A DNA stretch of 64,000 bases from Escherichia coli (GTDB lineage: Bacteria > Pseudomonadota > Gammaproteobacteria > Enterobacterales > Enterobacteriaceae): NCBI RefSeq assembly GCF_030013205.1, contig NZ_CP122648.1. One strand, 5' to 3'. The notes beneath the pieces are model-generated. The model did no database searches. It was not told the DNA's origin and saw only the letters and a list, made by a program, of their open reading frames with translations. The position numbers and the translations under genes are program-made. Of the stretch, positions 1,633-49,400 are shown in pieces. The number at the start of each line of letters is the position of its first letter. Positions within the stretch are counted from its first letter, which is position 1.

Positions 1633-4302
1633 TTAAGCCCCCTCCTTGTTACTAAATATCCAGCATTTCAATACCTCCTTCTCTCTGGCCTCGGCTATTC
1701 CCCTCCCGGCGTTCGCCTGTCTGGATACCTCGCTACGGACGGGCTTGTATCCAATCAGCGATCGAGAACGGCCAGCCTTGAGAAGCTTTATCATTTCGGG
1801 ATTGGTTTGGGTCTTCACGTGGTGAACGGCGGCAACCTGCTCAAGTTGCGGGATACTGACGGCAAACTCATTCTGCCGTCCCTTGCCAAAATGATTTACG
1901 CCGTATGCTGTGATGCCGTCCAGATAGTCGAACGCCTCCCAGAACGCCATCACTTCCGGCAAGTCATCCATTACCGCTTTAGCCTGCTCCTCTGCCATTC
2001 GCTCCAGTTCCAGACATGTGGCATCAAGCCATTCATCCGGGATATCAATAACGCATTTCAGCGCCCTGACCAGTGCAATTAGTTGCGCGTGATTTTTGGC
2101 AATACGCTGATGGCGAATATTCTCGCAACCGTAAAGGCGGGTTGTTTCAGAATCCGAGAGTGCCATAAACAGATCCATAATCGCCCGCTCCTGGCTTACT
2201 GCCCGATGGATAAAACCTGATACCTGCTCAACGGGGTAAAGCTCCAGCCGTTTTGCTGCCAGTCGGCTATCTGGTGAGTGGCGTTTTTTATCGGTGTATA
2301 TACGTACCAGACGCTCGATAATTGCCGATGAGGCGTTTACCGTGGCATTCTGCGCAATCACGACAGCCCCTTTAAAAACGGGGTCATATGTGGCGTTATC
2401 ATTAGTTTTAACACCACGTACCCCAATACCACCGCCGTTATAGAGGCTTTTCAGGTTATCAAAGTCAAACGCACCTCTTTTTTGCGCATTGTCCCCCCGG
2501 TCTGCTTCAATCAGAACAACAGGTAATCCGGCGACCTGTCCAAAAGTTCGCTTCCAGCCTGATTCCGATCCTTTGGTTGGATCAACACCTTCATAGTTGT
2601 CACGGCCACACAAACGCCAACAAAAATCAATCAGCGTTGTTTTACCCGTTCCAGGCTCTCCGGTAATCTCAAGAAAAGGGTAAGACGTGTTTTTCTGCCT
2701 GATTTGTTCGCTGAACAACGAACCCAGCCAGAAGGCCAGGGTAATAATTCCCTTTTCACCAAAAGCCAGCCAGAGATCTTCCACCCAGGATATTGTGAAT
2801 TTATCCGGTTTTTTATAGTTAATCTGCAATATTGGTTTTTTATTCAATGGTTTTGCGTTTATGCCATCAATTTCAAAATAATCCTCTTCATTGATTTCGT
2901 AGGTTTTACCATTACAAACCGCGACATCATTAAACAGCCACGCGCCAATCTCTTTGTTGTATCCGATAAAATCCTGACCGATAACATTTTTTATTGCGGG
3001 AAGGTCATTTTTTATTAATGCATCAAGGTGCGCAGTCGTTCCGGTATAAATACCGCCTTTTGCCACATGCAACAGGCGTTTTTTAAATTCAGATGCGGAT
3101 GTTAATTGTCCTGATGTAAAGGTGTTTTTCACCGTCGCACCATCCGGGAACGTAACACGGAAGTAATACCATGCTTCATCCGTGTCATTGTTTCGAATGT
3201 AATAAAGCGGCGCCGGGTTACAGTTTGCGATTTCTTTTACAGCGCCGGATTCCTTAAGTGCAATTTTGCGCGCTTCATCTTCGTCAACATTTCGCTCATT
3301 TATGACGCGTTCAACAGCCTTCATATGGCGCTCAATATCCAGTTTGAACCAGAAAACACGGTTATCAAAAGTAAAATGAAATTCCTTTCGCTCACGAAAG
3401 GAAAACATTATCAGCGCCTTATCTCTCGGAGATTTTGCCAGCAATAAATCACCGTAATAACGGTATCTTTTCACATCATGGCCACGCAGCTTTCCGGCGA
3501 TGTGTAAATCATTCCAGTCGCGTTTATTGCTGTTTTTTCCTGGTAACGCCGCTGCCGTTCTCCAGCCGTCTTCGGCGCTGCGTTCTGCATGTTTTTTCGC
3601 ATAACGCTCACCCGCACGCCCGTTATCCAGCGCCCACACGATAACCGGACGGGGATTATCCCCGCACAGCTTCGCCAGCTCTTCCAGCGCCTTATCAGGG
3701 TAGTTTACGGCAGACATGACAGAAACGGCCGCAATGCCATTCTGGTTAAGGCTGATGGCATCAAAGATACCCTCACAAATCCAGATTTCTTTGGCCTTGC
3801 TTAAATCATCTCCCGGATAAGCCCACCACAACCCCTTGTAGCTGCCGGAAAAATTCGCCTTGCGCGCGAAGCGTTCCGGTCGGTCTATGATGCGCTCCCA
3901 CCACACGCCGTCAGCCAGTGTAAAACGCACAGTAGCGGCCTGTTCGCCGCTTTCCTTGTCCTGGTATCGCTCCTGAGTAAATGCTCCCTTCAGTGGCTCC
4001 ACAGCAATATTGCGTGCTTCCAGAAGATAAGCTGTCGCCGCTGCGTATGGATTGTCTTTCGTGCTGATATAGCGATCTGACCATGATGAAAACACATCCG
4101 GGTAAAGTTCTTTGGTCAACAGGTCTGTACCGCATTTATTTTCGCGCCCACAGTGCACGATGTACGGCCTTTCAAGGCTGGTAAAGAGCTCCTTCTTTCC
4201 ACATTGCGGACAAACACCATACCGGAGGTAGTTATTTTCTTCTTTGAAGTTGTAATCACGGATAAGACGGTTAATAATCTCTTTTCTGGTGTTATGTTTC
4301 AT
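1633..4302 (-). CDS. replicative primase-helicase (N-terminal zinc ribbon, TOPRIM-like primase core, C-terminal P-loop NTPase)
   Basis: 889 aa; CPQCG...HCGREN zinc motif, WICEGIFDAISL, Walker A GEPGTGKTT; stop lies 2 nt from integrase start. Confidence 0.8.
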   Translation of the reverse strand: MKHNTRKEIINRLIRDYNFKEENNYLRYGVCPQCGKKELFTSLERPYIVHCGRENKCGTDLLTKELYPDVFSSWSDRYISTKDNPYAAATAYLLEARNIAVEPLKGAFTQERYQDKESGEQAATVRFTLADGVWWERIIDRPERFARKANFSGSYKGLWWAYPGDDLSKAKEIWICEGIFDAISLNQNGIAAVSVMSAVNYPDKALEELAKLCGDNPRPVIVWALDNGRAGERYAKKHAERSAEDGWRTAAALPGKNSNKRDWNDLHIAGKLRGHDVKRYRYYGDLLLAKSPRDKALIMFSFRERKEFHFTFDNRVFWFKLDIERHMKAVERVINERNVDEDEARKIALKESGAVKEIANCNPAPLYYIRNNDTDEAWYYFRVTFPDGATVKNTFTSGQLTSASEFKKRLLHVAKGGIYTGTTAHLDALIKNDLPAIKNVIGQDFIGYNKEIGAWLFNDVAVCNGKTYEINEEDYFEIDGINAKPLNKKPILQINYKKPDKFTISWVEDLWLAFGEKGIITLAFWLGSLFSEQIRQKNTSYPFLEITGEPGTGKTTLIDFCWRLCGRDNYEGVDPTKGSESGWKRTFGQVAGLPVVLIEADRGDNAQKRGAFDFDNLKSLYNGGGIGVRGVKTNDNATYDPVFKGAVVIAQNATVNASSAIIERLVRIYTDKKRHSPDSRLAAKRLELYPVEQVSGFIHRAVSQERAIMDLFMALSDSETTRLYGCENIRHQRIAKNHAQLIALVRALKCVIDIPDEWLDATCLELERMAEEQAKAVMDDLPEVMAFWEAFDYLDGITAYGVNHFGKGRQNEFAVSIPQLEQVAAVHHVKTQTNPEMIKLLKAGRSRSLIGYKPVRSEVSRQANAGRGIAEAREKEVLKCWIFSNKEGA

Positions 4303-4310
4303 ATATAAAT

Positions 4311-4343
4311 CCCCCCCACTGCACCTTTTGCAGTGGGTTTTTT
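4311..4343 (+). terminator. hairpin CCCACTGCA-N4-TGCAGTGGG followed by T6 (plus-strand orientation)
   Basis: seen in sequence between 99-aa ORF stop and primase start; would block antisense read-through. Confidence 0.45.
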
Positions 4344-4348
4344 ATTAA

Positions 4349-4648
4349 TTACTCGTTGCTTATTGCTTTGGCAATCCCGGCGGTTTCGGCGCTATGCCAT
4401 GAAAAAATTCCGCCGGATGAATGCATACCAGATTTTATTGATTGTAATTCCCTATAAATAATGTTAGACAGAGATGCAATTTCTTCATTTATAATTTCTG
4501 CTGATGCTCCGCCATTTTTATCGTCAAAAACCACAGATATTAAACTGACGAGATTAATCACATCTGTGAGATCTTCCTTTGCACTTTCTGTAAAAAAGCC
4601 AACATATTCTCTATCTAAAAAATTTTCGCTATTCTGACGTTTAGACAT
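4349..4648 (-). CDS. hypothetical protein, 99 aa, AT-rich
   Basis: ORF track; low GC, no recognisable motif. Confidence 0.45.
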   Translation of the reverse strand: MSKRQNSENFLDREYVGFFTESAKEDLTDVINLVSLISVVFDDKNGGASAEIINEEIASLSNIIYRELQSIKSGMHSSGGIFSWHSAETAGIAKAISNE

Positions 4649-4715
4649 AAAAACTCCCCGACCCGTTAAGGCCGAAATATAAATTTAATTCAGTTATCAG
4701 TTGGTAATTCGGGAA

Positions 4716-4934
4716 TCAGGCGGAAAGCTGCGTCACCTTCAACGCCCTGAAATGTGTCATTCCCAGCTCTTCCAGCCCTTCGGCTGCGCGGCGTATGGCT
4801 TCGCCCGGTCCCGTTCCGTATACCGTTGCATGTGCATGTTTGGTTAACCCACGTTTATTAACGGCATAACCCAACACAAAGAAACGTTTTTCACCACTGC
4901 CATTATTTTTACGGGATGTTGAACGGGTTTTCAT
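4716..4934 (-). CDS. hypothetical small protein, 72 aa
   Basis: ORF track; start overlaps upstream stop (ATGA), suggesting translational coupling. Confidence 0.45.
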   Translation of the reverse strand: MKTRSTSRKNNGSGEKRFFVLGYAVNKRGLTKHAHATVYGTGPGEAIRRAAEGLEELGMTHFRALKVTQLSA

Positions 4935-39095: not shown

Positions 39096-39285
39096 AGCAC
39101 TTGCTCCTTTTCCGGAGAGGCGCTAACCTTTCACTTGCTTAGGGTAGACGGTTAGGGCCTCGGTTAAACAAAAGTGTTTTCCGGGGCCTTTCCACATCTG
39201 GCCTTCGGGTATTCCCTCCGACCATCAGCCGAAAGGCACCCGCGCGTAATCTATCGCTTTTTTGTTACTCCGGCAATTCTGCTTG

Positions 39286-39546
39286 TTAATTCTGAGGTAA
39301 AGGCAAACTCATCTGATTGTTTCCCCTGTGTGAAGCTGGTAGCTCATGCCACGGGATACCTTCTGAAGAGTGAACGCCGGAGGCGTGTTTCGATGTGAAT
39401 TTATGGAAAGCTTCCAGTGTTGAGAAGCATACGCCGCATTCCAGATTGTTACACTGGTAATACTTTTGCCGCACGGTGTTTGAATCATTTTCCGGACGAC
39501 TTGTGCGGATACGGGCAGATGCGCCACAAAGCGGACAACGGAACAT
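39286..39546 (-). CDS. ogr: Ogr/Delta-family zinc-finger late-gene activator
   Basis: N-terminus MFRCPLCGASARIRTSR...YYQCNNLECGVCF matches the Ogr Cys4 motif. Confidence 0.85.
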   Translation of the reverse strand: MFRCPLCGASARIRTSRPENDSNTVRQKYYQCNNLECGVCFSTLEAFHKFTSKHASGVHSSEGIPWHELPASHRGNNQMSLPLPQN

Positions 39547-39737
39547 AGCGACCTCCCTTAACGTGGTGTTGCCGCTATTCTAGATTGTACGTTCCCTAAT
39601 TCCAACTAACAGCTCGCTCTGTGCGAAGAGTGAAAATTGAACTTTCAATAGTTGTTGAACTTTCATACATCCAATGTGAAAATTCATACGTTCATAATAG
39701 TTAAAATTTAAAATATTGTATATCAGGTGAATAAAGC

Positions 39738-40760
39738 ATGGGAAGAGATATAACGCTGTACCCTAAAAAAGCAACTAGAAACGAACTTAAAAATTACCTT
39801 GAAAATTTAGGTTTTAAAAGGTGTAAACATTTGTGGGAATGGCCCCAAGGAACGTTGAATTACTCTTGGTTTGATGATACGGACTTCAAATCTACAGATG
39901 GAGTTTCGGCTGATATATATCCTGTTTCAAATGACGAATTACACATATCTGGTAATAAATGGGCATTGCATGTGCGTAATTTATATAGCGCTAGTTGGCA
40001 TGATGTAAAAATGCTTAATGATGTTCTAAAAGGCGCAAGGAGTCTTTTTGGTGGAACACTTATAGGTGATTATGGGAAAAATAGGTACGCTCCTCTATGG
40101 AAGGATTCTAGTAGTCCGATCAGTCGTGGCATTTCTTCAATATTTAATCATGTCCATCATGAGATTTCCGCTGTTAAACATGCCTTACCTGAACCTTCTA
40201 TTAAATTAAACCTACCGGAAGATGGCGGCTTATCCGAATACTTTGATTACATGCAATGTATGGATCCCAGTAGAGTTATATATAATGGATTAGTACCTTT
40301 TGCGGTTGCTATGTTTGAATACTTTTTCTCTAGAGCTTTTCAAATACTTATAAAGTACGATCCTTTCGCAATAGCAAAAAGAACATCGTATAAGCAAAAA
40401 GTTGATTTTGATATTCTGCTTGAGATAGAGAAAGGAAATATTTCAATAGAAAGTGTTATTGCAAGAAATTACACTTTTCAAAACTTAACCCACCTAAACA
40501 AAGCATATAAAGAGTGGCTGGATATAGATGTGAGAGCGATTCTTTATAAGAAAAAAAGAATTGGAAAATCAGTTGATTTTCTTGAGAATCGAATTTCTGA
40601 AATCATACAATATAGACATGGGATAGTTCATCACTTTGAGTTGGATAGGACCTTAAATCGGGATGGATATATTCATATATTAGATGCGCTAGAAAAAAGC
40701 ATAATTGAATTTATCCATTACATAGAAGGCAAATACAAATTTAAATTAAATGCGTATTAA
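39738..40760 (+). CDS. hypothetical protein, 340 aa, strongly AT-rich accessory gene between ogr and D; no recognisable domain
   Basis: ORF track; opposite strand to flanking late genes; own AT-rich upstream region with direct repeats; hairpin terminator after stop. Confidence 0.6.
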   Translation: MGRDITLYPKKATRNELKNYLENLGFKRCKHLWEWPQGTLNYSWFDDTDFKSTDGVSADIYPVSNDELHISGNKWALHVRNLYSASWHDVKMLNDVLKGARSLFGGTLIGDYGKNRYAPLWKDSSSPISRGISSIFNHVHHEISAVKHALPEPSIKLNLPEDGGLSEYFDYMQCMDPSRVIYNGLVPFAVAMFEYFFSRAFQILIKYDPFAIAKRTSYKQKVDFDILLEIEKGNISIESVIARNYTFQNLTHLNKAYKEWLDIDVRAILYKKKRIGKSVDFLENRISEIIQYRHGIVHHFELDRTLNRDGYIHILDALEKSIIEFIHYIEGKYKFKLNAY

Positions 40761-40788
40761 GCAATCAACCTTACATAGGGATGACAAA

Positions 40789-40815
40789 GTCCGCTTCTGA
40801 CACGGAGCGGACCGT
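40789..40815. terminator. hairpin GTCCGCT-N10-AGCGGAC between convergent 340-aa gene and D
   Basis: seen in sequence. Confidence 0.5.
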
Positions 40816-40880
40816 CGTTTATGTTTAATTCTATACTGTAAACTTGCCAGTTTAAGTTTGAGCTAATATGTCTAAGTTGC

Positions 40881-41990
40881 TCACTCTGTTTCTGCTATCC
40901 ATTCCGGGATTTTTGCCTCAAGCTCAAGCTGTGTGGTAAAGCCGCTGTTATCAATGGTGTGCTCGGCTTTCGCAATAATCCAGTCCTGATTATCAATCTC
41001 GCTTTTAAATCCTGTTACCGTGCCATGCATTTCGGGGTAGAGTTCTGCACGTCCACGCACCAGCGTGATGGAAAACGATGCGGCTCCGCGTTGTAGCTGC
41101 TGCCACTTTGCCGCCGCTGCGCGTCTTGCTGCCTGCTCGTTCTGATAAGTCTTGCGTAACACAAACACATTGCCTTCCGCGCCTTCCATATAATCACCTT
41201 CACGGCTGCTGCTTTTCTCCTTTTTGGGTTTTGGCGGTTTGCGGCGTTTCACGCTGACTTTTTTCTTTTTCCCGTAATTAAGATCAAGCCAGTAAGCGCG
41301 TACCCCCGTATACGCCTCGCGGTCAGCAATGCGGAACTGATGGCGATCGCCGCTGCTGCGTGTGATGGCGAACGATGGCAACGGCTGGCCCTGTGCGTTC
41401 ACGCCACCGCCGGGCATGATGAATAACAGATTACCGCTTTTTACCGTGGTGATTGCGCCCAGCATTTCCGCCATGCGCGTAAGGAAGGACATGTCGCTTT
41501 CTTCAGTCTGGTCGGCGTGGTCGATTTCGATATCCATCAGCATTTCGCTGATTTGCGGTTTCAGGCCGTACCGATGAGCGATGGCGGATACCACACGTTC
41601 AACGGTCACATCATGCCAGGACGCCTCACGTTTAACATTAAATTCATCCCGAAAATCTGCGCTTCTGGCTGAAACAGTCAGCCTGTCCGGCGGTCCTTCG
41701 TGAGCGATTTCATCAATAATGTAAGTGCCTTTTTCTGTCAGCGGTTCCCCTTTCCAGCCAATGAGAACCGTCAGACGCGCGCCCCGTGGCGGTAGCTGCA
41801 ACTGGCCATCGGCATCATCCAGCGTGATGGTGAGCTGGTCCGCCTCAAATCCCCGGTTGTCGGTCAGTGACAGGCTCATCAGGCGTTCTGCCACGCCGGA
41901 CAGCGTTTTACCCTCGGCGAGAATATCAAAATCCGGCATTTTCACGGGGTCTGTGCCCTGACTGAGCAATTGCATGGTGGTGTCGGTCAT
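40881..41990 (-). CDS. D: P2 gpD-like tail protein (late control D)
   Basis: similarity to P2 D (LSLTDNRGF..., DGPPD, RSADFRD); start chosen at ATG 41990 with GAGGGA RBS, track ORF extends to 42122. Confidence 0.85.
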   Translation of the reverse strand: MTDTTMQLLSQGTDPVKMPDFDILAEGKTLSGVAERLMSLSLTDNRGFEADQLTITLDDADGQLQLPPRGARLTVLIGWKGEPLTEKGTYIIDEIAHEGPPDRLTVSARSADFRDEFNVKREASWHDVTVERVVSAIAHRYGLKPQISEMLMDIEIDHADQTEESDMSFLTRMAEMLGAITTVKSGNLLFIMPGGGVNAQGQPLPSFAITRSSGDRHQFRIADREAYTGVRAYWLDLNYGKKKKVSVKRRKPPKPKKEKSSSREGDYMEGAEGNVFVLRKTYQNEQAARRAAAAKWQQLQRGAASFSITLVRGRAELYPEMHGTVTGFKSEIDNQDWIIAKAEHTIDNSGFTTQLELEAKIPEWIAETE

Positions 41991-42147
41991 CTGTTCCCTC
42001 CCTGTGCGGCATGGTCGCATGTGCGTGCGGAGGGGGTTACTGCTTTTTGTTGTCGCCGTGGCGGGAGAATAGCGCAGGGGTGAGATTACGCGCGTGGTGG
42101 GTGATGATTGTTGCTGAATCATTTAACGGATACAAGGGGCTGAAGCT

Positions 42148-43332
42148 ATGAGTGAAACTCGTTTTCATGGTGCCCGTGTTACGGAAAATACCGACCTGGT
42201 AACAGCGATTAACGATGTTGATTCCAGCGTTATCGGTATCGTGGCAACGGCGGATGATGCGGACGCGAAGCTGTTCCCGCTGAACAAGCCCACATTGCTG
42301 ACCCGCGTCAATGACGTGCTGGGAAAATGCGGAACAACGGGGACGCTTTATCGTGCGCTTAAGGCCATCGCAGACCAGGTGAGCACAAAGGTGATCGTCG
42401 TTCGCGTGGCTGAACACAAAGAAGAAGACGGAAAGACGCAGGATCAACTGGTTATCGGTGGTTCTGAGGATGACGGCAGCTATACGGGGATGTATGCGCT
42501 GCTTGTTGCAGAGCAGGATGAAAGCATCGGATACCGTCCGCGTATTCTGGCCGCGCCGGAGCTGGACACGGAGGCTGTAACAAAATCCCTGTGCGTGATT
42601 GCAGGTAAACTGCGCGCGTTTGTGTATGCCTCATGTCACGGCTGTAACACGATGGCTGAGGCGATTACCTACCGCCAGAAATTCAACGAACGTGAGGTGA
42701 TGCTCTTATGGCCGGACTTCATCGCCTACAACCCGAAAAGTGGCAAAAACGAAACGTTCCCCGCGCCTGCCTATGCGTGCGGCCTTCGTGCGTACATTGA
42801 CCATGAGCAGGGCTGGCACAAATCGCTGTCCAACGTTCCGGTTAAAAATGTGCTGGGGATGTCCAGGCATGTGTTCTGGTCGTTGCAGGCCGAAGACAGT
42901 GATGCCAACAGCCTCAACAACAAAGAAATCACGACCATTATTCGTCGCAACGGGTTCCGCTTCTGGGGCAACCGCACACCGGAAACGAACGCCTACATCT
43001 TTGAGGTGTATACCCGAACCGCACAGGTGCTGGCTGATTCAATTGCGGAAGCGCAGTTTGAAACCATCGACAGTCCACTGACGCCTGCGAACGTGAAAGA
43101 TGTTATCAGTGCCATCAGGGCAAAACTGGATTCACTGGTTACTGCCGGGAAACTGATTGGGGCGTCGTGCTGGTATGACGTGGTGGATAACGGCACCACG
43201 AATTTACGTCAGGGGCGCGTGCGTATTCGCTACAAATATACGCCTGTTCCCCCGCTGGAAGACATGGAGCTTTACCAGTCGTTTACTGATGAATTCTTTG
43301 GTCCCGCATTTGCGGTGCTGGGAGGTGCCTGA
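42148..43332 (+). CDS. FI: P2 FI-like tail sheath protein
   Basis: 394 aa contractile tail sheath sequence. Confidence 0.9.
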   Translation: MSETRFHGARVTENTDLVTAINDVDSSVIGIVATADDADAKLFPLNKPTLLTRVNDVLGKCGTTGTLYRALKAIADQVSTKVIVVRVAEHKEEDGKTQDQLVIGGSEDDGSYTGMYALLVAEQDESIGYRPRILAAPELDTEAVTKSLCVIAGKLRAFVYASCHGCNTMAEAITYRQKFNEREVMLLWPDFIAYNPKSGKNETFPAPAYACGLRAYIDHEQGWHKSLSNVPVKNVLGMSRHVFWSLQAEDSDANSLNNKEITTIIRRNGFRFWGNRTPETNAYIFEVYTRTAQVLADSIAEAQFETIDSPLTPANVKDVISAIRAKLDSLVTAGKLIGASCWYDVVDNGTTNLRQGRVRIRYKYTPVPPLEDMELYQSFTDEFFGPAFAVLGGA

Positions 43333-43844
43333 TGGCTGTACCAAAACATCTTCGCTTTTTTACGCTGTTTGTGGATGGTGAAAACGAAGTGGGTAAGGTG
43401 ACGTCCGTCACTCTGCCTAAGCTGACGCGCAAAACCGACAGCTACCGGGGTGGTGGCATGATGGGTGCGGTAAGTATTGATCTCGGTCTGGACGACTCCG
43501 CGCTTGATGCGAGCTTTGTCATGGGGGGCGCAGTTCGTGAGCTGTTCCTTAAGTATGGCGGCACGATTGACGGCACGCTGCTGCGTTTTGCGGGTGAATA
43601 CTACACCGATGCAGAAAGCGACCTGTATGAAGTCGAAATGCGCGGACGTGTGACGGAAATTGATATGGGGGAAGCCAAACAGGGCGAAGCCACATCACAC
43701 ACTTACGCCATTAAAAACACCTACTACAAGCTGAGTGTTAACGATCGCCCGTTGTGGGAGATTGACCTGCTGAACTTCATTTACCGGAAGGACGGCAAGG
43801 ACATTGTGCCCGATCGCATCCGTTCCGCGCTCGGGCTTGGCTGA
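43332..43844 (+). CDS. FII: P2 FII-like tail tube protein
   Basis: 170 aa; start overlaps FI stop. Confidence 0.9.
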   Translation: MAVPKHLRFFTLFVDGENEVGKVTSVTLPKLTRKTDSYRGGGMMGAVSIDLGLDDSALDASFVMGGAVRELFLKYGGTIDGTLLRFAGEYYTDAESDLYEVEMRGRVTEIDMGEAKQGEATSHTYAIKNTYYKLSVNDRPLWEIDLLNFIYRKDGKDIVPDRIRSALGLG

Positions 43845-43899
43845 TAAGTAATATGCAGGCGGCGCAGTGCGTCGCCTCTGACTGAAAAGGAGACAACTG

Positions 43900-44274
43900 A
43901 TGAAAGACATCGATACTGAAACCCGGAATAACACCGTGGCGGATGATGTGACGGCAGGTGAGGATATGGCTGTCGAACATGGCGTAAAACTGACCCGACC
44001 AATTGAGCGTGGTGGCGAAAAAATCACGTATGTGGAGATCACCGGGGCTATTGAACAGGCTGGATCCCTGCGTGGTCTGTCGCTGTCTGATGTGCTGAAT
44101 CTGAAAGCGGATACCATGTTCACGCTGTTGCCTCGCGTGACCTCGCCACGACTGGATGAAGTGATGATTAAAAAAATGTCGTCACGCGATTTTATTCAGT
44201 TGTGCGCTGTGGCTGTAAATTTTATGAGCGAGCCAGACTCTGGCGCGAAGAGCGTGCAGGAGACGGCAGCGTAA
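43900..44274 (+). CDS. E: P2 gpE-like tail assembly chaperone
   Basis: 124 aa; position between FII and tape measure. Confidence 0.8.
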   Translation: MKDIDTETRNNTVADDVTAGEDMAVEHGVKLTRPIERGGEKITYVEITGAIEQAGSLRGLSLSDVLNLKADTMFTLLPRVTSPRLDEVMIKKMSSRDFIQLCAVAVNFMSEPDSGAKSVQETAA

Positions 44275-44438
44275 TCACCCTGGTGTGCTTTGAGCACATC
44301 GAAGATCTGGTGGCAGATATCGCCGCCATTTTTAACTGGTCGCCCGCCGAAATCTTCATGATGACGCCCGGCGAAGTGGTTAGCTGGCGTGAGCGGGCGG
44401 CACTTCGCAGCGGGAATGCAGACAATGAAGACTCTTGA
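44202..44438 (+). CDS. -1 frame extension (E'-like) overlapping E 3' end and T start; candidate programmed frameshift product E+E'
   Basis: open -1 frame across the E/T junction; candidate slippery heptamer AAATTTT near 44217-44223. Confidence 0.5.
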   Translation: MRCGCKFYERARLWREERAGDGSVITLVCFEHIEDLVADIAAIFNWSPAEIFMMTPGEVVSWRERAALRSGNADNEDS

Positions 44439-47232
44439 CATCCGGGTCGCTTTCAGCGCCGTTGACAGGCTGACCCGGCCTGCCGAAAACGCCCGCCGCC
44501 TGATGGGGCAGTTTGGTGACTCCATCCAGCGAACGCAGGGGGCGATCAAAAATCTCGAGCGTCAGGCGCGTTCATTTGAGCGCGCCCGTGACGCTGTCAG
44601 TAAAGCGGATGCTGGCATATTGAAAGCACGACGCCAGCTTAACGCCCTTAATCAGTTACAACGCACGGGTACAGTGCTCAGCGAAAAACAACAAAAGCTG
44701 ATGCAGCAGTTAAGCACCCGGCTTGAACGCCTGAATGAATCGCGCACACGGGAAATTCAGAAAATGCGGGAGCTTGGCGGAGAGCTGAAACGCCACGGCA
44801 TTTCCCTGACAGGCAGCGATAACACCATCCAGCAGGCCATCAGACGCACCGAACAGTACAACAACCAGCTTGAACGCGAACGGCAGGCGCTTGCGCGTGT
44901 AACACGGGCGCGTGAGCGGTATTCGCGCGCGCAGGAAACAGCGGGAAAACTGAAAACAGGTGGTGCGCTGGCAATTGGTGCGGCAACGGCGGGCGGCTAT
45001 GCTGCCGGGCGTTTTTTGCAGCCTGCGATCGGGTTCGGCAAAGAGATGTCCCGCGTTCAGGCACTGACGCGAATCGACAAAAACAGCCCGCAGTTTAAGG
45101 CGCTGCGTGAGCAGGCGTTAAAACTTGGCTCTGAAACACAGTTTACTGCGAGTGATGCCGCCAGTGGGCAGAGCTTTCTGGCAATGGCTGGTTTTACTCC
45201 GCAGGCCATTCAGGCCGCATTGCCCGGTGTTCTTAATATGGCGCTGGCAGGTGGCGTCGAACTCGGCGAGACGGCTGATATAGGCTCCAATATCCTCACA
45301 CAGTTCAACCTGACAGCCGATCAAATGGACCGTGTTGGCGATACGCTGACAGCAGCATTCACCCGGACCAATACTGATTTACGCGCGCTGGGCGAAACCA
45401 TGAAGTATACCGGTCCGGTTGCCGCAAAACTTGGTATCAGTCTTGAAGAAGCGGCGGCCATGGCCGGGATGCTTGCCAATAATGGTCTTCGCGGAAGCGA
45501 TGCTGGTACGGCCATGCGCGCAAGTCTGTCCCGCCTTGCATCACCGCCAAAAGCTGCGGCTGATGCACTGAAAGAGCTGGGGGTGTCAGTTGCTGACGCC
45601 AGAGGCAAAATGCGCCCGATGGAGGATGTGCTGCTTGATCTCTATAAGGCGACACAAAAATACGGACAGGTGGACCAGGTTTCCTTCTTCAAGGACATCG
45701 CCGGAGAAGAGGCGTTCGTTGGTTTGCAGACGCTTGTTGCGGCGGCTGGTTCAGGAGAGCTGCAAAAACTGACCAGAGAATTGCAGGGGGCAAGGGGAGA
45801 GGCCGATCGCGTCGCAAAAGTAATGGCCGATAATCTTGATGGGGACCTGAAAAATCTCGACAGCGCATGGGAAGGTCTTCGTATTCGCATCAGTGATCTG
45901 GTTGACGGTCCGCTGCGTTCTGTCACGCAGTGGCTCACGCGGGTGCTTGAAAAAATCACCTCGCTGGCGCAGGCCCATCCGGTACTGACGCGCCAGCTAC
46001 TGATAGCAGGCGGTGCGTTGCTGGCAATGACTGCAACGATTGGCTCGTTGTCGCTGGTTATTGGGGTGCTTTACGGGAAGCTGGCCACCCTGCGTCTTGG
46101 TTTTGACATTCTTACCCGGTCAATGAATGTCGTCAGGGTGTTGCCTGCGCTGTGGGGAATGGTGACGGGTTCCGTTTCTTTACTGGGAGGCGCCATCGGG
46201 GCGTTGTTCAGTCCGGTTGGTCTTATCGTGGCTGCGCTTGCCGGAGCTGCCGTTCTTATCTGGAAATACTGGGATCCCATCAGGGCATTTTTTGCCGGGG
46301 TGTTCAGCGGGATTATGGAAAGGCTGACCCCGTTGCGCGAAACCTTTGAACGGTTTGGTCCTGTTTTTGACACAATCGGAAGCGGGATCAGCCAGGTGTT
46401 TAACTGGTTTAAATCGCTGCTGTCACCGATGGAGTCCAGCAAGGAAACGCTGGATAAATGTACCAGTGCTGGCGAGATATTCGGTAACGTTCTTGGCGGT
46501 GCGTTACAGCTTGTTCTGACACCTGCAAAAATGCTACTGGATACGCTGGCGTGGATACTTGAAAAACTTGGCGTCCTTCCGGATGAAGCGGAAAGGGCGC
46601 GCAAGAAAATCGAAGACGCACAGCGTGCGGCCATTCTTCAGGACAAGGTTGTCTTGCTTCAGGGTGACCTGGCGAAAATCAATCCGCCGAAGCCTGTGGA
46701 AAATGGCAATGGCACCGGAGGTAATAAACCCAAAGACAACAAACCGCTCACAGACAGCAATACCGGGACGCTACGCAGACTCAGCAAAATTGCTGATAAC
46801 ACAGGTAAGCTGGTTGATGAGACGAAAAAACGCATTGGCCCCGGCGATATTGTCTTTAAGAACCTGCCCCGCGCACTTGCTGTTCGTGGAGAGTGGCAGG
46901 AGCGGAAGATTGCGCAGGTCAGTAAGCCTGCCCCCGCAATTAATATCACACCCGTGGTCCCGGCTCCGCTGCCTCCGGCGCTGGTCCCTGTTGTTGCGGC
47001 CAGCTCCCGCCCGGTGGCGGAGGCCATACGATCTCCAGTGGCATCAGTTCCTGTAACTTCCCGTAACCGGGAGCCTGTTGCCTCCGGATTTGGTGGTGAA
47101 ATTCATGTTCATCTGCATAACGTTGTTACGCAGAATCCCCGCGAACTGGCGAAACTGGTCGGTGAAATGGTCAGGGCAGAAATGGAACGGCGCGCCCGTG
47201 CCGGGCGTGGCAGTTTTTACGATAAAGATTGA
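44389..47232 (+). CDS. T: P2 gpT-like tail tape measure protein (true start probably 44416 or 44425)
   Basis: 947 aa, coiled-coil and Gly/Ala-rich membrane-like segments typical of tape measure proteins. Confidence 0.9.
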   Translation: MSGRHFAAGMQTMKTLDIRVAFSAVDRLTRPAENARRLMGQFGDSIQRTQGAIKNLERQARSFERARDAVSKADAGILKARRQLNALNQLQRTGTVLSEKQQKLMQQLSTRLERLNESRTREIQKMRELGGELKRHGISLTGSDNTIQQAIRRTEQYNNQLERERQALARVTRARERYSRAQETAGKLKTGGALAIGAATAGGYAAGRFLQPAIGFGKEMSRVQALTRIDKNSPQFKALREQALKLGSETQFTASDAASGQSFLAMAGFTPQAIQAALPGVLNMALAGGVELGETADIGSNILTQFNLTADQMDRVGDTLTAAFTRTNTDLRALGETMKYTGPVAAKLGISLEEAAAMAGMLANNGLRGSDAGTAMRASLSRLASPPKAAADALKELGVSVADARGKMRPMEDVLLDLYKATQKYGQVDQVSFFKDIAGEEAFVGLQTLVAAAGSGELQKLTRELQGARGEADRVAKVMADNLDGDLKNLDSAWEGLRIRISDLVDGPLRSVTQWLTRVLEKITSLAQAHPVLTRQLLIAGGALLAMTATIGSLSLVIGVLYGKLATLRLGFDILTRSMNVVRVLPALWGMVTGSVSLLGGAIGALFSPVGLIVAALAGAAVLIWKYWDPIRAFFAGVFSGIMERLTPLRETFERFGPVFDTIGSGISQVFNWFKSLLSPMESSKETLDKCTSAGEIFGNVLGGALQLVLTPAKMLLDTLAWILEKLGVLPDEAERARKKIEDAQRAAILQDKVVLLQGDLAKINPPKPVENGNGTGGNKPKDNKPLTDSNTGTLRRLSKIADNTGKLVDETKKRIGPGDIVFKNLPRALAVRGEWQERKIAQVSKPAPAINITPVVPAPLPPALVPVVAASSRPVAEAIRSPVASVPVTSRNREPVASGFGGEIHVHLHNVVTQNPRELAKLVGEMVRAEMERRARAGRGSFYDKD

Positions 47233-47238
47233 GGAGTC

Positions 47239-47733
47239 ATGGCCATGATGATGATCTACGGCATGTTTGTTTTTGAGCTGCGCACGCTGCCGCATCAGCA
47301 GTTACAGCAAAACAAAAGCTGGCGGCATGTGAAAAATGAACGCGTTAACCGTTCAGCAAGCTGGCAGTATATCGGTGCAGGTGATGATCGCATCGTTCTT
47401 TCTGGTGTGCTTTATCCTGAAATTACAGGTGGCGAAGTGTCGCTGTCGCTGCTGACCACGCAGGCGTATACAGGACGCCCCTGGCCTCTTATTGATGGCG
47501 TCGGGCAGATTTACGGCATGTATGTCCTGACCGAAACGAATACGACCCGTTCCGAGTTTGATCGCTACGGTAAGGCGAAAAAGATAGAATTTTCACTGAC
47601 CCTTGAACGCTGTGATGAGGATTTGCGGGAGCGCCTGCAATCCTCATCGTTCAGCGATATGCTGTCCGGCTTCAAAGATAAAGTGACATCATCCCTTAAC
47701 AGCGCGGCCAGTTCAGTTAAAGGGCTGTTCTGA
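47239..47733 (+). CDS. U: P2 gpU-like tail protein
   Basis: 164 aa; N-terminus and WQYIGAGDDRIVLSGVLYPEITGG match remembered P2 U. Confidence 0.85.
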   Translation: MAMMMIYGMFVFELRTLPHQQLQQNKSWRHVKNERVNRSASWQYIGAGDDRIVLSGVLYPEITGGEVSLSLLTTQAYTGRPWPLIDGVGQIYGMYVLTETNTTRSEFDRYGKAKKIEFSLTLERCDEDLRERLQSSSFSDMLSGFKDKVTSSLNSAASSVKGLF

Positions 47734-47903
47734 TTTAATGCTGGCCACTCATACCCTCATACCTGGTAATAAGTGGCCAGTCTTAACACTCACCATTTGA
47801 TTGCACCAGTGTTAACGATTTGTTACTGGACATCAGGCACGCTGGATAGCCAGTAGAAACATACCATTAAAATTATTACAATAATTGGTCACATGATTAT
47901 CTT

Positions 47904-48467
47904 ATGCTGAATAATAGAGATATGAATATTAATGAACTTAAAGATTGTATTCACTATGAAGTAATCGGTAGCGAGCGTCCTTTCTCCTGGCGAAAGGCAA
48001 TTGTTCGCGCAATAAAACATAGAAGAGTTCGTTATTTATTTTGGTGGCGCATAGCCAAATACCTTTTTGATAAAGGCGGATACTGTCGGAAGATTGCGGG
48101 GAAAATAGAACGTTTCATTCTTGATAAATATAATGTAACAGTCCCTTTAACTGTAAATATAGGGAAAGGCTTTGATATTTCTTATCTCAACAGTGTTGTT
48201 ATCGGTCACAAAGTAACAATCGGTGAAAATTGTTCAATAAAACCAGGGGTAACTATTGGGCTGCGTGGTGATTTTAATGATATGGATATTGTTATAGGAC
48301 ATAATGTGACCATTGGTTGTAATGCCACCATTCTTGGTGGCAAAGTGCGTATAGGAAACAATGTCACAATAGGTGCTCATGCATTGGTATTGCATGATAT
48401 TCCAGATGATTCAACATTCATCACTAAATTTCAGTCTGAAGTTATCTGCTCGTCCTCCCGCACATAA
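47904..48467 (+). CDS. hexapeptide-repeat acyl/acetyltransferase; AT-rich accessory gene, possible surface-polysaccharide modification
   Basis: 187 aa with repeated [LIV]GxxxxIG hexapeptide motifs; 3' end overlaps tfa by 37 nt convergently. Confidence 0.7.
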
Positions 48468-49048
48468 CCCTGATTCATCAGCTCTGGCCATACGATATCC
48501 GGAGCTGTACTGGTGTCAATTCTACTCACTAATACTCTGTATTTTCTCCAGGAATCCAGTTGTGAATTTTCCTCGTTTGTTGCTATTTCAAGATTAACTG
48601 CATCCTGCAGAATTGCGATGTTATCTGTTGCTTCCTGGATCAACCTTGCCTTTTTCTCTTCCGCTTCCCGTATCCGAAACAGTTTTTCTGCTTCCTCATC
48701 CTTCACCCAGGATACGCCGTCCCACTTCTGATACTCCCCTGCTGGCGACAACCAGGTGACATTCTCTGGTAGCGGTCCGGGTTCAGAAATAAACAACGCG
48801 TCCCCCGATGCCACGTCATAGACCGTTTTACCACGATGGTCTTCAACAATATTCCACGATTCATTTTCACTGTTAAAAACTGCCACAAAGCCAGCAGGAA
48901 TTTCCGGTGGGGCGATATCTGTAGAATTGGCTGGCAGCCCTGTATGAGGTGGAATATATGCGTCACCTTCACCAATAAACTCATTAGTTCCGGCCAGCAG
49001 GTTATAAATTTTTACAGTACGTGATTGTTCACTCATTCTGAATGCCAT
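48431..49048 (-). CDS. G: tail fibre assembly protein (lambda Tfa / P2 gpG type)
   Basis: 205 aa; N-terminus [34 protein letters not shown] matches remembered lambda Tfa. Confidence 0.9.
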
Positions 49049-49400
49049 TATGCAAGCCTCACAATATAATTAAATGCGATGTTTTTAACGGTGTTTTCCG
49101 CGTTACCAGCAGCGTTAACGGTGATGGTGTGTCCATGTGAACCAATCGCAACAGAGTGCGTATGAGCGCCAATAGCTGATTGAGTGTGACGCCATACGCC
49201 CCACGGACCATCAGTGCCATTCCACTTATTGGCGAGTTTACGCATGTATACATTGCCGTCTCTCGTGATAAAACGTTGCGTGCCTGCAAAATTGCCAGCT
49301 GCAAAAACCTCAAGCACACCGACAGCATTATCTTCCGGGAAATTTTTCTCCAGTGTTGCGTTGGTGGATGTTGCTTTAGACCAGATGCCAGTGCATCAGC
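49048..49400 (-). pseudogene. H: C-terminal fragment (about 117 codons) of tail fibre protein (gpH/Stf type), 5'-truncated
   Basis: frame open from stop near 49400 to ...[19 protein letters not shown]; no start codon or N-terminal domain. Confidence 0.75.

Follow-up and report, generated by a model that had tools for sequence, protein, structure and literature searches.

Organization of the P2-Type Tail Gene Block

The window analysed in this study is a 64,000-nt stretch of Escherichia coli DNA (contig NZ_CP122648.1), and all coordinates given below refer to it. A P2-type tail gene block occupies positions 42148-47733 of the + strand. It begins with the sheath gene FI (42148-43332, named 'phage tail sheath' in RefSeq), followed on the same strand by the tail tube gene FII (43332-43844; Pfam Phage_tube, E 7.5e-47), gene E (43900-44274), the tape measure gene T (44425-47232; Pfam PhageMin_Tail, E 1.6e-56), for which RefSeq gives the ATG at 44425 as the start, and gene U (47239-47733; Phage_P2_GpU, E 5.5e-39).

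Gene E, the predicted tail assembly chaperone gene, is read in what we call the 0 frame and encodes 124 aa. It was recognized by its open reading frame, by phrog_103 and by alignment with E of phage P2, and it is placed between its upstream neighbour FII and T, as the P2-type pair requires. The match to phrog_103 (tail protein, E 1.2e-36), together with a BLASTP match to P2 (8e-29) in which the E part is aligned, indicated that the product is homologous to gpE. Its score against Pfam Phage_TAC_7 was 20.6 bits, under the cut-off of 25 bits, and RefSeq names it either 'hypothetical protein' or 'tail protein'.

A gpD homologue is encoded on the minus strand at 40881-42122 (Phage_GPD, 6.9e-17); the RefSeq call of D covers only the 3' 801 nt of this ORF. 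Together with an ogr-like gene it occupies 39285-42122, upstream of FI on the opposite strand, and the gene order of the window is therefore not the F-E-T-U-D-ogr order of P2. The same arrangement is common to phages P88 and phiSM. Between the ogr-like gene and the gpD gene, the window carries a low-GC (35-38 %) insertion of 1.28 kb relative to phiSM (39583-40866). The 340-aa ORF within it (39738-40760) gave a weak, sub-threshold match to HEPN_RiboL-PSP (E 1.6e-4) and no match in PADLOC. The insertion may represent anti-phage cargo in a variable spot of P2-like phages.

The -1 Frame over the 3' End of E

In the -1 frame relative to E, a TAA at 44169-44171 is followed by a frame that stays open from 44172 to the TGA at 44436-44438. 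This frame covers the final 100 nt of E and reaches 14 nt into T. An open -1 frame running over the 3' end of E into the start of the tape measure gene had been claimed by the original prediction and is indeed present. The interval proposed for it, 44202-44438, holds as to the frame itself; position 44202, though, is merely the first GTG, and the opening lies at 44172.

The 88-aa translation starting at 44172 contains the Pfam domain PF06528 (Phage_P2_GpE) in its residues 47-82, which correspond to 44310-44417 on the + strand. The match has an E value of 2.9e-12 and 46.3 bits against a cut-off of 23. If ribosomes enter this frame at the site described below, the E' segment after the slip would comprise 71 aa (YERARLWREE...NADNEDS, 44223-44438 on the + strand, ending at the TGA), and the predicted E+E' fusion, join(43900..44223, 44223..44438), would have 179 aa. 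The 124-aa E and this fusion have 108 N-terminal residues in common. The profile phrog_1756, which was built from proteins of the E' frame, matches residues 104-177 of the fusion, that is, up to the junction, and the NCBIfam scan of the conceptual E+E' fusion gave no match.

The variability of the aligned sequences points to the same reading. In the E-only part, the column entropies at the three codon positions are 0.85, 0.73 and 1.41, with the maximum at the third position. Immediately 3' of the site they are 0.70, 1.07 and 0.81, with the maximum at position 2 of the 0 frame. As position 2 of the 0 frame is the third position of the -1 frame, the pattern of variability switches right after the site. 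In addition, the peptide encoded in the -1 frame from the junction on (W..ER.GDG) is conserved between clades that share only ~50 % identity, and this conservation begins at the slip site, upstream of the GTG at 44283.

The Proposed Slippery Heptamer and Its Relation to the P2 Site

The proposed slippery heptamer, A_AAT_TTT, lies at 44217-44223 on the + strand. The codons of E at this place are GTA AAT TTT ATG, and the heptamer thus has the X_XXY_YYZ phase that tandem -1 slippage needs. It is the sole in-phase XXXYYYN motif within the overlap of the 0 and -1 frames in the window. The chance of finding any such heptamer in the 9 codon positions that all relatives allow is P ~0.05, and for motifs that are efficient in E. 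coli it is P ~0.017 over the same positions. Given that the heptamer also coincides with the position of the P2 site, an origin by chance is negligible. A T_TTT at 44190-44193 (GAT TTT) was considered as well and rejected: it amounts to no more than a tetramer, P88 has C_TTT in its place, and the -1 frame is barely open at this point. Stimulated -1 frameshift signals of the dnaX, IS911 and IS3 type have a conserved hairpin or pseudoknot downstream of the slip site or a Shine-Dalgarno-like stimulator upstream of it. No Shine-Dalgarno-like motif was seen upstream of the heptamer when the sequence was read, and our literature search for AAATTTT as a slip site of tail chaperone genes found nothing relevant.

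P2 shifts to the -1 frame at T_TTT_TTG, within its FETUD tail operon (Christie et al. 2002, as reported in PMC3091744). The P2 record (NC_001895) annotates E with 91 aa and E+E' with 142 aa, together with the -1 frameshift and the shift site. The codons around that site are GTC GGT TTT TTG TCG (V G F L S) in P2, GTA AAT TTT TTG AGC (V N F L S) in P88 and GTA AAT TTT ATG AGC (V N F M S) in the window. The conserved Phe codon of the P2 site is thus also covered by the window heptamer, which lies one codon further 5'. The canonical P2 heptamer T_TTT_TTG is absent from the window, which reads T_TTT_ATG. Since the outgroups (P2, an Enterobacter phage and the P88 clade) all have TTG, the alignments mark the T-to-A substitution at 44224 (TTG Leu to ATG Met in E) as the derived state. 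This substitution destroyed the P2-type heptamer and left the overlapping upstream heptamer alone.

When the fusion was made at AAATTTT and aligned with E+E' of P2, the two proteins were colinear across the junction, with 33 % identity (BLASTP 8e-29). This is the alignment to the P2 E/E' region that the original prediction had suggested as a check. Its heptamer proved to be exactly positioned and in phase with E, and its remark that the motif differs from the one in P2 agrees with the T_TTT_TTG found there. The P2-type E/E+E' reading itself likewise stands on the placement of E between FII and T, on the colinearity of the fusion with P2 and on the location of the heptamer at the Phe codon of the P2 site.

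Comparison across Related Loci

For the comparative analysis, we used a set of 87 loci consisting of 80 IMG/VR contigs and of phage and genome records. E' lies in the -1 frame relative to E in every one of them. The overlap of each of the 87 contains an in-phase XXXYYYN heptamer, in some cases two, and without exception over the homologous Phe codon. The heptamer is TTTTTTG in most loci and TTTTTTA or TTTTTTC in a few. Other loci combine CCCTTTT with TTTTTTG, and the P88 clade combines AAATTTT with TTTTTTG. The clade of the window, represented by 8 distinct sequences, has AAATTTT alone, and this heptamer is invariant in all of its loci while the flanks vary. Meanwhile, the Klebsiella Reipivirus clade has CCCTTTC alone (CCT TTC TTG; loci L005 and L052-L067, around L005:1486-1495). 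In most of these Klebsiella loci the -1 frame is open for ~250 nt upstream of the E stop.

The frames themselves delimit the site. A stop in the -1 frame abuts the Phe codon in 10 loci, and the E stop of P2 follows the Phe codon by 24 nt; a site shared by the family must accordingly lie between Phe-1 and Phe+24. The heptamer T_TTT_TTG was found in 80 of 80 P2-clade loci and is absent from both the window clade and the Klebsiella clade, so that it is a feature of P2 itself and not of the whole family. A second scan of IMG/VR with E+E' of P2 returned solely P2 copies of 99-100 % identity, all with GGT TTT TTG, and added no diversity. Judged from these alignments, two lineages have lost T_TTT_TTG independently and have kept the overlapping upstream heptamer, the window clade through a missense change (TTG to ATG) and the Klebsiella clade through a synonymous one (TTT to TTC).

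Downstream RNA Structure

The consensus folding of 20 diverse loci with RNAalifold gave -0.4 kcal/mol and no helix near the site, and the folds of single sequences of 60-127 nt had z values from +0.8 to -1.8. On these grounds, a downstream structure was rejected as a family-conserved feature. This agrees with the reported absence of such a structure in P2 and in Burkholderia P2-like phages (PMC3091744). The original prediction had proposed that related phages be examined for a conserved slippery site or downstream structure; the slippery position is conserved in 87 of 87 loci, but the downstream structure is not.

A candidate hairpin was nevertheless seen in the window clade. It is imperfect, spans 44228-44270 on the + strand, and its core (44232-44267) starts 8 nt 3' of the heptamer. 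It folds with -17.5 kcal/mol (z -1.9), a marginal value, as 10 of 200 dinucleotide shuffles were as good. A divergent locus of the window clade (L021) keeps it with z -2.3, whereas the P88 clade is without it (-7.1 kcal/mol, z +1.2). The hairpin might act as a stimulator of the frameshift; we put this forward as a hypothesis.

Complete E. coli genomes show perfect linkage of the two haplotypes: ATG comes with window-type flanks (596 genomes) and TTG with P88-type flanks (812 genomes), and the recombinant 33-mers (ATG on P88-type flanks, TTG on window-type flanks) were each found in 0 complete E. coli genomes. In view of these zero counts, a co-adaptation of the hairpin and the ATG variant is inseparable from linkage. 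A single contig (L024:1630-1910, IMGVR_UViG_2534681835_000034) has the ATG variant without the candidate hairpin: its TTTATG lies on sequence that is of the P88 type 35 nt upstream as well as over 100 nt downstream. This haplotype occurs in none of the complete E. coli genomes and arose either through recombination of a very short patch or through a second, independent T-to-A change.

Competence of the Heptamers in E. coli Reporters

Published reporter data allow the motifs to be compared in E. coli (PMC4066793, Table S3). The -1 frameshifting on AAAUUUU amounts to 0.070 % with no stimulator, 0.355 % with the IS911 stimulator and 11.4 % with the IS3 pseudoknot. The corresponding values are 0.193 %, 1.39 % and 23.2 % for CCCUUUC, and 0.118 %, 0.247 % and 0.765 % for UUUUUUG (PMC4066793). 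Both A_AAU_UUU and C_CCU_UUC fall into the H_HHU_UUY class, whose members are the best U-type motifs in E. coli (Sharma et al., PMC4066793), and C_CCU_UUC is among the most efficient E. coli motifs of these data; U_UUU_UUG is weak in the same assay (0.77 % vs 11.4 % for AAAUUUU with the IS3 pseudoknot). The upstream heptamer is far more responsive to stimulators in E. coli than the P2 heptamer. When stimulated, the window heptamer is at least as good as that of P2; alone, it is at background (0.07 %).

Distribution of the Variant and State of the Prophage

Over the 631 nt of the E/E' region, swine ETEC chromosomes match the window at 100 %, Xuanwuvirus P88_4B11, Citrobacter phage phiSM and Escherichia phages 503458 and 520873 at 98-99 %, and phage P88 and its relatives at 83-85 % identity; all of these phages are Peduoviridae. 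A copy of E/E' is present in 1373 of 5426 complete E. coli genomes, and the exact ATG variant, with the -1 frame intact, in 596 of the 5426. Over 151 nt around the site, phage phiSM does not differ from the window, and it has been reported to plaque on E. coli K-12 and to lysogenize it stably (PMC6456863). The ATG variant thus does not preclude a working tail, on the assumption that the GenBank record is that of the published phage, as its name and host indicate.

It should be noted that the product names in the phiSM record (L091, OR565851) look shifted by one gene at 2294-4745: the name 'late control gene D protein' stands on the 1185-nt sheath gene and 'ogr' on the gpD homologue. The phage was described as a siphovirus with a non-contractile tail (PMC6456863), and the P2-type sheath and tube encoded by its genome are at odds with that description.

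The window is 99.99 % identical over 40 kb to strain K_EC180. Its prophage is without 11.5 kb that are present in phiSM (phiSM 9152-20627), and 47739-49387 of the window stands in their place. The lost segment comprises the invertase, tail fibre, baseplate, lysis, head-completion and small terminase genes as well as the 3' part of the capsid gene; this gene, N, breaks off at ~49389, where it abuts tail-fibre fragments. In the identical strain, RefSeq flags capsid and tail fragments and a frameshifted integrase (~63254 to the end of the window). As these morphogenesis and lysis genes are missing, the prophage in the window cannot make virions, and the function of the frameshift is not under current selection in this genome. 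Most likely, the prophage has inherited a functional frameshift signal that has ceased to play a part in the making of virions.

Directly after the gpU gene, where phiSM has a DNA invertase, the window carries a low-GC (38-43 %) ORF for a hexapeptide-repeat transferase (47904-48467; Pfam Hexapep, 1e-12). PADLOC gave no match for this ORF. It is probably a moron or cargo gene and possibly serves the acetylation of surface polysaccharides.

Proposed Mechanism and Alternative Explanations

We consider it probable that the locus carries the known P2-type E/E+E' -1 frameshift, in which A_AAT_TTT has replaced T_TTT_TTG in the Xuanwuvirus lineage of the window type. We infer both the slippage on A_AAT_TTT and its efficiency. 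A minority of the ribosomes translating E would slip back by 1 nt at A_AAU_UUU (44217-44223). Before the slip, tRNA-Asn would be paired with AAU in the P site and tRNA-Phe with UUU in the A site; after re-pairing on AAA and UUU, the next codon would be UAU, and the -1 frame would be read to the UGA at 44436. The products would be the 124-aa E and the 179-aa E+E', with the junction ...AVAVNF/YERARLW..., and the junction peptide predicted for a slip at A_AAT_TTT is ...DFIQLCAVAVNFYER. A slip of tRNA-Phe in the P site only, on U_UUU, would give the same protein and is indistinguishable by sequence. By analogy with E/E+E' of P2 and G/GT of lambda, both products would serve as chaperones of tail assembly that act around the tape measure protein. 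The ancestor would have had the decamer A_AAT_TTT_TTG with two overlapping heptamers, of which the T-to-A change at 44224 removed the 3' one.

The databases annotate E' differently, as a 51-aa 'GpE family phage tail protein' starting at a GTG (44283-44438, + strand; RefSeq and phage records), and it could be argued that this separate protein is made without any frameshift, by independent initiation or by re-initiation after E, which terminates at the TAA at 44272, 9 nt upstream of the GTG. The GTG at 44283 is present in the Xuanwuvirus clade, and the stand-alone peptide still matches the GpE models. However, no Shine-Dalgarno sequence was found upstream of GTG 44283, the stretch from the slip site to the GpE domain contains no ATG, GTG or TTG in ~20 of the 31 sequence types of the family, and neither a conserved start codon nor a Shine-Dalgarno sequence for independent initiation of E' was detected across the family. 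Independent initiation is therefore unsupported, and we rejected it for GTG 44283 as well as for GTG 44202. Moreover, W..ER.GDG is conserved from the slip site on, upstream of the GTG, and the homologous P2 product is an established frameshift fusion according to its record annotation and to what PMC3091744 reports of it. We thus regard a separate 51-aa protein as very unlikely; the ORF is probably an annotation artefact of the unannotated frameshift.

Another view would place the shift at the A7 run at 44170-44176, through ribosomal slippage on A_AAA or transcriptional slippage. The -1 frame opens at 44172, directly after the TAA, poly-A runs are known to be shifty, and AAAAAAA is efficient in reporters (PMC4066793). 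The run, though, has the phase T_AAA_AAA instead of X_XXY_YYZ, the A_AAA tetramer is weak (0.13-0.26 %, PMC4066793), and in P88-clade sequences a -1-frame stop comes after this run and closes the frame there. The product would also replace 16 conserved residues of E, including the invariant D97, L101, V106 and F108. A shift at this run in place of the heptamer is extremely improbable, although the run could still yield low-level aberrant products. It might also be that the substitution at 44224 crippled the frameshift, so that the window clade makes little or no E+E' and the site is a decaying relic. This would accord with the loss of the canonical P2 heptamer, with the background level of unstimulated AAAUUUU in the reporters (PMC4066793) and with the defective prophage of the window. 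Yet the variant is fixed in the 596 complete E. coli genomes with an intact -1 frame, and it is identical in the plaque-forming phiSM and in the complete phage genomes P88_4B11, 503458 and 520873. The invariance of the heptamer amid varying flanks and the independent reliance of the Klebsiella clade on an equivalent upstream heptamer likewise argue against a relic, and we hold this explanation to be highly improbable.

Consequences for Annotation and a Possible Site Turnover

With a P2-type frameshift at A_AAT_TTT as the preferred reading, the E/E' pair is divided, in over 1,300 complete E. coli genomes and in several reference phage records, into a 'hypothetical/tail protein' and a 51-aa 'GpE family' ORF that is spurious. 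The frameshift is marked in none of the annotated records inspected, and the phiSM record leaves E' out altogether. The correct product at the locus would be entered as join(43900..44223, 44223..44438), a ribosomal-slippage join that is absent from the inspected records. A search for the P2 motif TTTTTTG misses the site in two sizeable lineages and is insufficient for Peduoviridae; a better rule is based on position, namely an in-phase X_XXY_YYZ over the conserved Phe codon. The arrangement of overlapping heptamers is also a small natural experiment in which the site drifts while the product ratio is preserved. The variant site leaves the understanding of tail assembly unchanged, and its value lies mainly in the correction of annotation.

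A wider and more speculative reading, which we offer tentatively and regard as possible but rather doubtful, is a turnover of the slippery site. Here the ancestral form would have been X_XXT_TTT_TTG, at least two lineages (the E. coli Xuanwuvirus of the window type and the Klebsiella Reipivirus) would now depend on the upstream heptamer, and the window lineage would have co-acquired the hairpin (44232-44267), which would set the ratio of E to E+E'. If this were true, phages that have both heptamers, P88 included, may already use chiefly the upstream one.

Comparison with Known Systems

The tail assembly chaperone genes G and G-T of phage lambda have the frameshift site G_GGA_AAG, and a ratio of 30:1 has been measured for lambda. 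Unlike the P2 pair, they show no detectable sequence homology to E/E' of the window, and lambda is a siphovirus.

P88 and the TTG-type Xuanwuvirus and Gemsvirus prophages of 812 E. coli genomes share with the window the architecture, the A_AAT_TTT heptamer and ~84 % DNA identity in E/E', but they also keep T_TTT_TTG, as part of the decamer A_AAT_TTT_TTG, and lack the hairpin of the window clade. The Klebsiella Reipivirus prophages (e.g., ST16-OXA48phi5.4) resemble the window in another respect: T_TTT_TTG was independently lost, and the upstream C_CCT_TTC alone is left. They differ from it in the heptamer and in the nature of the change, which is synonymous instead of missense, and the proteins are only ~50 % identical.

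As for P2 itself, the window shares with its E/E+E' pair the gene position FII-E-E'-T-U, homologous E and E' segments, the -1 direction, the use of the same conserved Phe codon, the end of E' inside the start of T and the absence of a conserved downstream structure. It differs in the heptamer, A_AAT_TTT one codon further 5', because TTG became ATG; the slipping tRNAs would be Asn/Phe in the window and Phe/Leu in P2. Furthermore, E of the window has a 25-residue N-terminal extension (124 aa vs 91 aa in P2), the linker after the junction is 10 residues longer, and D and ogr lie upstream on the opposite strand.
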